A stretch of 6,634 bases of DNA from a virus (IMGVR_UViG_2698536379_000001), one strand, 5' to 3'; shown: positions 448-618, counted from the first letter of the stretch. Notes: generated by a model not told the origin, from the letters alone. Numbers and translations: made by a program.

Positions 448-493
448 CTACTTGGCTCCATCTTAACAGTGGTTTTTCAATAGTTAGATTTGA

Positions 494-557
494 TGCTCAT
501 TTCTGACAATTTAAACATTGCAAATGTATTGACTGTCAGATCTGAGCATATTACATT
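494..557 (+). promoter_or_regulatory. Candidate operator (imperfect 15-bp inverted repeat) overlapping a sigma70-like promoter for the Rep/structural operon
   Basis: TGCTCATTTCTGACA (494..508) and TGTCAGATCTGAGCA (534..548) are reverse complements at 13 of 15 positions. TTGACT (529..534), a 17-bp spacer, then TACATT (552..557) form a plausible -35/-10 about 60 bp upstream of the Rep ATG at 619. The repeat overlaps the -35 and spacer, as expected for repressor occlusion. Confidence 0.4.
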
Positions 558-618
558 GTGACCATTCAATCTGCTCACAAATGACTATTGACACATATTT
601 TGATGGGTGTGACTACTT

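Follow-up and report, generated by a model that had tools for sequence, protein, structure and literature searches.

Does the intergenic region between two divergent genes of a filamentous prophage hold the operators of its own repressor, and is this where superinfection immunity is decided? The question is raised by positions 448-618 of a 6,634-nt stretch of viral DNA (IMGVR_UViG_2698536379_000001; "the window" below is this whole stretch), which is a known CUS-1/YpfPhi-type filamentous prophage integrated at dif. A 148-residue helix-turn-helix (HTH) protein, here called the repressor, is encoded to the left of the region, and a replication initiator (Rep) is encoded divergently to its right. 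A first-pass annotation had taken the region for the immunity determinant of the phage, under operator control by the divergently encoded HTH repressor, and this proposal is supported by co-variation of the sites with the recognition helix, by conservation of the half-sites and by exchange of the region as a cassette. As judged from sequence comparison, 448-618 is probably, at roughly 80%, the immunity control region of the prophage, where the divergent repressor would bind three 16-bp dyads. The phage is known and its control region ordinary; what is new is that the sites are spelled out.

The first-pass annotation had described two 15-mers, TGCTCATTTCTGACA at 494-508 and TGTCAGATCTGAGCA at 534-548, and their coordinates, their complementarity (13 of 15 positions) and the distance of 40 bp between their centres (501 and 541) are all borne out. 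Taken alone, the pair is moderately unusual: a 13/15-or-better pair within 40 bp arose in seven of 500 dinucleotide shuffles (1.4%). The description of the 15-mers as half-sites of one inverted repeat had to be abandoned, however, as each is a complete dyad and the long-range pairing is missing from the nearest diverged relatives. The window has exactly three copies of TGCTCA-N4-TGAC, at 494, at 535 on the minus strand and at 572. When aligned, they read TGCTCA-TTTC-TGACA (494), TGCTCA-GATC-TGACA (minus strand, 548-534) and TGCTCA-CAAA-TGACT (572), and each holds a dyad of its own, TCA-N4-TGA. Both 15-mers appear to belong to a set of three complete 16-bp dyad operators, TG(C/G)TCA-N4-TGA(C/G)nA, designated O1, O2 and O3 (Table 1); their starts are spaced by exactly 39 bp, and O1 begins 47 nt from the repressor ATG. 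The core STCA-N4-TGAS (STCANNNNTGAS) has three matches in 6634 bp, all within 496-585, at an expectation of 0.34, and none of 200 shuffles held three or more. A strictly symmetric consensus, TGCTCA-N4-TGAGCA, was rejected as a model of the window's sites, since chance matches score equally; the half-site rule TG(C/G)TCA was used instead. TGCTCA or TGAGCA occurs six times in the whole window, four of these within 431-577. Both of the additional TGCTCA copies that had been pointed out, at 431 and 572, exist; the one at 572 is the left half of O3, whereas the one at 431 is probably no operator site. It sits within the first codons of the repressor, is followed by TTGT-TGCC (TGCC for TGAC, one mismatch), is kept in the close relative L008 and is missing in the more distant S-type relative L012.

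Within the lineage, the footprint of selection was sought in four ungapped versions of the intergenic region: those of the window, of YpfPhi (L014), of L028 (97% identical repressor) and of L008 (85%). Variation affects two of the 36 half-site positions, five of the 12 N4 positions and 35 of the 113 remaining intergenic positions (Fisher p 0.0016 for half-sites versus the rest); the 24 core STCA/TGAS positions, with a single variable one, likewise differ from the N4 spacers (Fisher p 0.010). The half-sites of O1 are invariant in all four versions, and its N4 varies. In L028, both half-sites of O2 are kept with the centre changed from GATC to GAAG; in L008, O2 reads CGGTCA-GATC-TGACCA, which is more symmetric and accounts for the only two half-site changes of that relative. 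The sole difference between the window and YpfPhi in this region, C578T, falls inside the N4 of O3, a centre that the repressor presumably does not contact. The GATC (within AGATCT) at 539-542, the centre of O2 in the promoter spacer, is a Dam site, and several enterobacterial cassette types (R-type, type B) also have a GATC in their promoter spacer; control by Dam through this site is not required, since L028 has GAAG there.

Across wider distances, the sites change together with the protein. Control regions of repressor homologs were taken from E. coli, Aeromonas, Photobacterium, Vibrio and metagenomes, and in every homolog locus fetched the repressor gene is divergent from a Rep gene. A dyad nnnnCA-N4-TGnnnn stands at the same two positions, those of O1 and O3, across 13 phages: in each of the 12 relatives examined, the O1 dyad begins 44-49 nt away from the start codon of the repressor gene, and in the ten relatives scanned a type-specific dyad occupies the O3 position, 112-129 nt from the ATG, with CAAA, TAAA, GAAG, CTAA, CTAG or TATA as its N4. 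An unbiased scan for 6+4+6 dyads returned one with at least 5/6 symmetry 46-49 nt from the repressor start in nine of 13 relatives, at a chance of ~0.035 per sequence. The half-sites follow the recognition helix. Helices of the form GI-S-V/I-S-TLVRI go with TG[CG]TCA-N4-TGA[GC]CA (the window, L008, L012, L022 and L023 from Aeromonas, L024 from Photobacterium and L019 from Vibrio); N/G-V/S-R-TL[VL]RI goes with TGGACA-N4-TGTCCA or AGACA-N4-TGTCT (L005, L010, L025 and the Vibrio phage L027); S-V-R-TLVRL goes with TGCCA-N4-TGGCA (L030); and NIGTLKRI, the type B helix, goes with GAACA-N4/5-TGT(C/G)AC (L002). At least four specificities are thus present among the 13 phages compared. TGCTCA/TGAGCA is the commonest hexamer in S-type regions, and TGGACA and GACAAA are the commonest non-low-complexity hexamers in R-type regions. 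O1 is a perfect palindrome, TGCTCA-N4-TGAGCA, in L012, L022 and L023, and the O1 dyad of L025 is a perfect 16-bp palindrome, too. The L005 repressor is 75% identical to that of the window, yet its operator is different; the L012 and L022 repressors are about 55-57% identical to it, and their operator is the same. By these comparisons, operator specificity does not track overall repressor relatedness.

The third line of evidence is the way in which the region is exchanged. Other E. coli dif prophages have the Rep gene in common from its ATG onward, and their left sides are unrelated. From the Rep ATG at 619, the type B prophage L002 matches the window at 98.9% identity over 3 kb, with no alignable sequence to the left of it; the protein sequences of the two repressors are 40% identical. 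In L005, the part from 600 onward (93.7% identity) and the repressor gene (75.5%) can be aligned with the window, and the stretch between them cannot. Type C (L003 2831-2999) has a 60-residue PHROG 2503 protein with no Pfam match, and three to four direct repeats, CTCATGAACTCA, in place of the dyads, so that this locus is served there by another kind of regulator. The repressor gene and the intergenic block appear to be exchanged together, as a cassette that ends at the Rep ATG, which is how an immunity determinant should behave. Different sites are found with one and the same Rep and in one and the same host, and Rep and host factors are excluded, by this reasoning, as readers of the dyads. 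On an Aeromonas contig (L022 1-1330), the TGCTCA-N4-TGAGCA module lies beside a Rep_trans-family initiator and a 78-residue open reading frame (ORF), not beside a pII-family Rep, so the immunity cassette is common to different replication modules.

Other explanations of the repeats have to be weighed against this evidence. The complementarity of the two 15-mers reaches further, into 27-nt arms (493-519 and 523-549) with 21 of 27 positions matching around a 3-nt centre, GCA, and none of 500 shuffles was as good. One long inverted repeat of this kind might act as structure, a cruciform or plus-strand stem-loop serving as minus-strand origin, packaging signal or recombination substrate, for which the CTXphi attP hairpin and the Ff intergenic region are models; the Ff phages have origins and packaging hairpins just upstream of gene II, and 493-549 as single-stranded DNA folds at -13.1 kcal/mol (z score -4.2). 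L008, however, with the same operator type, forms local stems only (-7.2 kcal/mol, z score -1.8), L012 and L005 likewise have local operator stems without a long hairpin, and in L028 the inner arm ACATT/AATGT no longer pairs. What is conserved are the local dyads with free N4, plus O3, which lies outside the palindrome, and no compensatory changes preserving O1:O2 pairing were seen across the relatives. Since the long O1:O2 hairpin is confined to the window's lineage, a structural role is extremely unlikely, and the near-palindrome is most readily explained as a side effect of the opposite orientations of O1 and O2. That the dyads are binding sites or origin elements of the downstream pII-family Rep is hardly credible, although the Ff plus-strand origin lies directly upstream of gene II and an invariant element, CTATTGACA, adjoins O3: the Rep DNA is 94-99% identical in the window, L005 and L002, yet the dyads are completely different, and in L022 TGCTCA dyads stand beside a Rep of another family, Rep_trans. 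Among these elements, only the invariant CTATTGACA could be Rep-related.

A host regulator, be it RovA/SlyA, LexA as in CTXphi or a nucleoid protein, is a very unlikely reader of the TGCTCA dyads. E. coli prophages with near-identical Rep carry different repeats (GGACA, GAACA..GTSAC or CTCATGAACTCA) that track the linked repressor type, TGCTCA dyads accompany the same recognition helix in Aeromonas, Photobacterium and Vibrio phages, and 448-618 contains no LexA box (CTGT-N8-ACAG, with at most one mismatch). An AT-rich stretch between O1 and the -35 hexamer speaks for such a regulator, as do the statements, in PMC4266046 (citing Cathelyn 2006), that RovA binds the putative YPO2274 promoter region and that its loss raises transcription of the phage genes in Y. 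pestis. RovA may bind elsewhere in the fragment as well and would not explain type-specific dyads common to several genera. Chance resemblance in an AT-rich intergenic region, finally, would suffice for the 13/15 match alone, at the shuffling frequency given above, but is a negligible explanation of motif clustering that none of 200 shuffles reproduced, of a position kept in 12 relatives and of co-variation with the recognition helix.

The protein itself, WP_000527682.1, fits the part of operator-binding repressor. It matches Pfam HTH_3 (E 1.6e-9, above cutoff), Phage_CI_repr weakly and PHROG 3557 "transcriptional regulator" (E 4e-74), and its recognition helix comprises approximately residues 38-46, S-V-S-T-L-V-R-I-A. 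In an AlphaFold model, the HTH domain has a predicted local distance difference test score (pLDDT) of 84-90 with helices at 28-35 and 39-46; it superposes on 434 Cro with a root-mean-square deviation of 1.5 A (TM 0.80) and on SinR and C.AhdI also within 1.4-1.5 A. S38 and S40, the residues changed between types, are located at the N-terminal end of the modelled recognition helix and are equivalent to T27 and Q29 of the 434 repressor in our own alignment. The C-terminal half is modelled as two long helices, and a Pfam search gave no Peptidase_S24 match in the repressor, that is, no LexA-like self-cleavage domain.

How repressor binding would be translated into silencing depends on the promoters. 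The Rep-operon promoter proposed in the first-pass annotation, TTGACT-17-TACATT, is present as described, and a consensus promoter scan picks the same pair as the best rightward sigma-70-like match. The top rightward match occupies the same position in 13 of 14 related control regions, with a spacer of 16-17 bp (17 except in L025). The two 15-mers had been said to bracket or overlap this promoter: the right one does overlap it, in the spacer, whereas the left one lies outside, ending 20 bp upstream of the -35 hexamer. Operator positions relative to transcription take the predicted start, A564, as +1. In DEC5E, the variant G531A converts the -35 hexamer TTGACT to TTAACT. Another rightward match, TTAACA-16-TAGATT at 463-490, was dropped, as it is not conserved in L008. 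For the repressor gene, two leftward candidates can be named. GTGAGC-17-TGTAAT is weak, its -10 overlaps the rightward -10, and its transcript would have a leader that contains a Shine-Dalgarno sequence and crosses O2 and O1. TGT-TAAGAT, which has no recognisable -35, would give a nearly leaderless repressor mRNA; a TAnnAT hexamer precedes the start codon of the repressor gene by 12 nt in aligned S-type and R-type relatives with diverged flanks, is shifted by 1-3 nt in three relatives and is missing from the type B module (L002). The constant distance from O1 to the ATG suggests that O1 serves the repressor promoter.

The three operators could act in the following manner. The repressor would bind O1-O3, presumably as dimers, which may associate through the helical C-terminal half. 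Because O2 fills the spacer of the Rep promoter, bound repressor would exclude RNA polymerase, and repressor on O3 would block promoter escape. Transcription of the repressor gene is probably set through O1, as autoregulation or as activation, and O1 may also act cooperatively with O2 and O3. With Rep and the downstream genes silenced, the prophage would stay quiet and superinfecting phages with the same operators would be blocked, which would make the repressor gene and the intergenic region an exchangeable immunity cassette. O1 and O3 stand at fixed positions flanking the Rep promoter from Escherichia to Vibrio. A bolder combination, speculative and unlikely as a whole, would have O1 and O3 act as a pair, with repressor oligomers looping ~78 bp and trapping the Rep promoter; the conserved extended -10 located 12 nt upstream of the ATG would, driven by O1, yield a nearly leaderless repressor mRNA; the switch would be independent of Cro, LexA and repressor self-cleavage; and 122-residue homologs on IncP-like plasmids would act in trans, making plasmid-bearing cells immune to CUS-1/YpfPhi-type phages.

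Several observations weigh against the assignment of 448-618 as an immunity control region read by the divergent repressor. The binding of RovA to the YPO2274 promoter region, as reported in PMC4266046, implies that the repressor is not the sole protein acting here, and the same paper states that a regulatory role of YPO2273, the YpfPhi counterpart of the repressor gene, "awaits experimental demonstration". A strict promoter scan and the comparison of control regions produced no convincing leftward promoter. The outer halves of the window's sites are only 4/6 symmetric, and none of them therefore reaches 5/6 in the dyad scan; the strictly symmetric consensus gives equal-scoring chance matches at 3519 and 5311. 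O2 is restricted to the enterobacterial S-type lineage, no spacer site being present in L012, L022, L023 or L024, and L029 (87% identical, helix STLARM) has decayed sites. For L030, a forward prediction (Arg at helix position 3 specifying GACA) was matched in architecture and position only, and its half-site reads GCCA; the residue-to-base code is therefore less simple than first written. Uninformative in this respect, the full plasmid L026 has no clustered operator sites, and the repressor homolog that it encodes has an identical recognition helix.

This homolog belongs to IncP-like conjugative plasmids of ~41.7 kb from E. coli and Salmonella (hundreds of contigs), which carry a 122-residue repressor homolog downstream of a resolvase (L026 15686-16054, NZ_CP127008.1; proteins P0045, P0059, P0064 and P0066). 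Its HTH region (ERIK..GISVSTLVRIASGKTEPKFSDII) is identical to that of the phage repressor, with ~90% DNA identity across 143 bp. On L026, the best match to the symmetric consensus (10/12) lies within coding sequence, STCA-N4-TGAS has five scattered matches versus 2.1 expected (seven of 100 shuffles had as many), and the sole perfect dyad, at 4506, resembles a terminator. Since no clustered operator is present on the plasmid, its homolog might work in trans, on the operators of filamentous phages. P0014 is a chimera of phage and plasmid.

An element of another kind lies at the right edge of the region. CT(A/C)TTGACA(C/G)G.TTTT(G) is found in all immunity types and hosts examined (E. coli A, R and B, Aeromonas, Photobacterium and Vibrio), 7-60 nt upstream of the Rep start. 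Its TTGACA, at 588-593, is not a -35 hexamer of Rep, because only 25 nt in the window, and 7 nt in L027, separate it from the ATG. The whole element could belong to the leader, for example, as a target, rich in G and U, of the G5P-like protein, or it could be a Rep-related site; the Ff gene II mRNA has a G/U-rich leader target of this kind. The upstream region of I2-2 gene II has no plus-strand copy of CTATTGACA-GG.TTTT. No conserved ORF of at least 30 residues was found in the intergenic region.

Table 1. Features of the window discussed in the text, with coordinates counted from its first nucleotide
Feature	Position	Strand	Description
Repressor gene	1-447	-	148 residues; Cro/C1-type (XRE, HTH_3) DNA-binding domain at residues 12-73, helical C-terminal half
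Candidate repressor-gene start signals	456-468	-	TGT-TAAGAT 468-460 (extended -10-like), then GGAG 459-456; putative function
57-bp near-palindrome	493-549		Its outer part is the inverted repeat first described
Operator O1 (predicted)	494-509	+	TGCTCA-TTTC-TGACAA; ~-63 from the predicted Rep start, spanning about -70 to -55
Predicted Rep-operon promoter	529-557	+	TTGACT 529-534, 17-bp spacer, TACATT 552-557; predicted start near A564
Operator O2 (predicted)	533-548	-	TGCTCA-GATC-TGACAG; fills the -35/-10 spacer, about -31 to -16
Operator O3 (predicted)	572-587	+	TGCTCA-CAAA-TGACTA; about +9 to +24 of the predicted transcript
Conserved element	585-605	+	CTATTGACAC-ATATTTTG; overlaps the right edge of O3
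Rep gene	619-1671	+	pII/X-family rolling-circle initiator, heads the rightward operon
ORF of truncated secretin	5628-6056		
Deletion junction	6034/6035		1217 bp absent (= L001 10035-11251)
Inverted repeat	6062-6105		21-nt arms, 81% complementary, 2 nt apart
dif	6527-6554		28-mer GGTGCGCATAATGTATATTATGTTAAAT, exact E. coli dif; right prophage-host junction

The genome setting identifies the element. Rightward from Rep follow genes for a G5P-like DNA-binding protein, coat proteins, a DUF2523 protein, Zot/pI and a truncated secretin. Rep matches Pfam Phage_CRI (1e-73) and G2P_X_C (4e-34) from residue 1 and is 57.8% identical to gene II of phage I2-2, the closest Rep module. Many E. coli genome matches to the window end exactly at 6554, and the element is present at >=99% identity in about 99 complete E. 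coli genomes, among them UTI89, whose lineage, O18:K1:H7, is the one where CUS-1 was described. The YpfPhi copy in Y. pestis has a repressor 100% identical to that of the window and three base differences in positions 1-700. A whole-window megablast against the phage collection gave no match, nor did an Rfam scan of the window. According to PMC4266046, YpfPhi and CUS-1 are 99% identical across 7.1 kb; YPO2273, which is identical to the window's repressor gene, occupies the rstR position and is described as an RstR-like regulator; a resident YpfPhi gives partial protection from superinfection; and the intergenic region is "believed to be involved in transcription initiation". No definition of the operator sites, promoters or immunity types of CUS-1/YpfPhi was found in the literature that could be searched.

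At its right end, the window lacks 1217 bp that are present in DEC5E (L001) and in 30 of the 30 genome matches listed. The gap takes out most of the pIV/secretin gene and an 82-residue ORF, which is why the ORF at the junction is read as a truncated secretin; this copy of the prophage probably cannot export virions on its own. The inverted repeat just to the right of the deletion junction has no T-run and is therefore no obvious terminator. To the left of the window, the interval from hipA to the repressor in DEC5E (L001 2350-3901) holds two genes, for a hypothetical protein of 139 residues and for one with a TIR domain, and different small ORFs are found at this position in other cassette types. 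Variable attL-side cargo is known for CUS-1 and YpfPhi (PMC4266046), with which the left-side genes of DEC5E fit; this cargo may be defence-related.

The fitness of extraintestinal E. coli K1 and of Y. pestis has been associated with CUS-1 and YpfPhi. The arrangement is as expected of a temperate phage, and the value of having it spelled out is practical rather than surprising: the three operators, S38/S40 and at least four natural immunity types are precise targets for experiments, and immunity groups of dif-integrated filamentous prophages become typable from sequence alone.

Among known systems, YpfPhi/CUS-1 is the same element, located beside dif, from which the window differs by the missing 1217 bp of the secretin region. 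The rstR/ig-2 region of CTXphi reportedly shares the layout, the operators and the heteroimmune cassette exchange. In both, a small HTH repressor is divergent from a pII/RstA-family Rep gene (Rep here, rstA there), several operators across the intergenic region cover the Rep promoter (as predicted here), and heteroimmune types arise by exchange of a repressor-plus-intergenic cassette, with the rest of the genome conserved. The CTXphi rstA promoter is co-repressed by LexA, whereas the window has no LexA box, and the compact 16-bp dyads described here differ from the ~50-bp RstR footprints reported there. A tblastn search with the repressor (E <=1e-3) against the phage collection, in which the presence of CTXphi is unconfirmed, returned Vibrio cyclitrophicus inoviruses and one Lactococcus phage; since no CTXphi record is among these matches, any relationship to RstR would be at the level of the generic HTH_3 fold only. 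With lambda and 434, the window shares a five-helix Cro/C1-type HTH domain, to judge from the superposition on 434 Cro, as well as three imperfect 14-17 bp dyad operators with variable centres between divergent genes, specificity that resides in residues at the start of the recognition helix, and exchangeable immunity cassettes. Unlike lambda and 434, it has no Cro-like second regulator, the first rightward ORF being Rep, and its repressor is without an S24 peptidase/RecA-cleavable domain; its operators are 39 bp apart, upstream of, inside and downstream of the lytic promoter, whereas those of lambda and 434 are adjacent. Pf4r (repressor C) of the Pseudomonas prophage Pf4 is likewise described, in the title and abstract of PMC8402870, as a filamentous-prophage repressor that controls superinfection immunity and replication genes; it is set apart by protein family and host. 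By analogy, the layout and the presumable function of 448-618 match those of CTXphi rstR/ig-2, and more loosely those of the 434/lambda OR.

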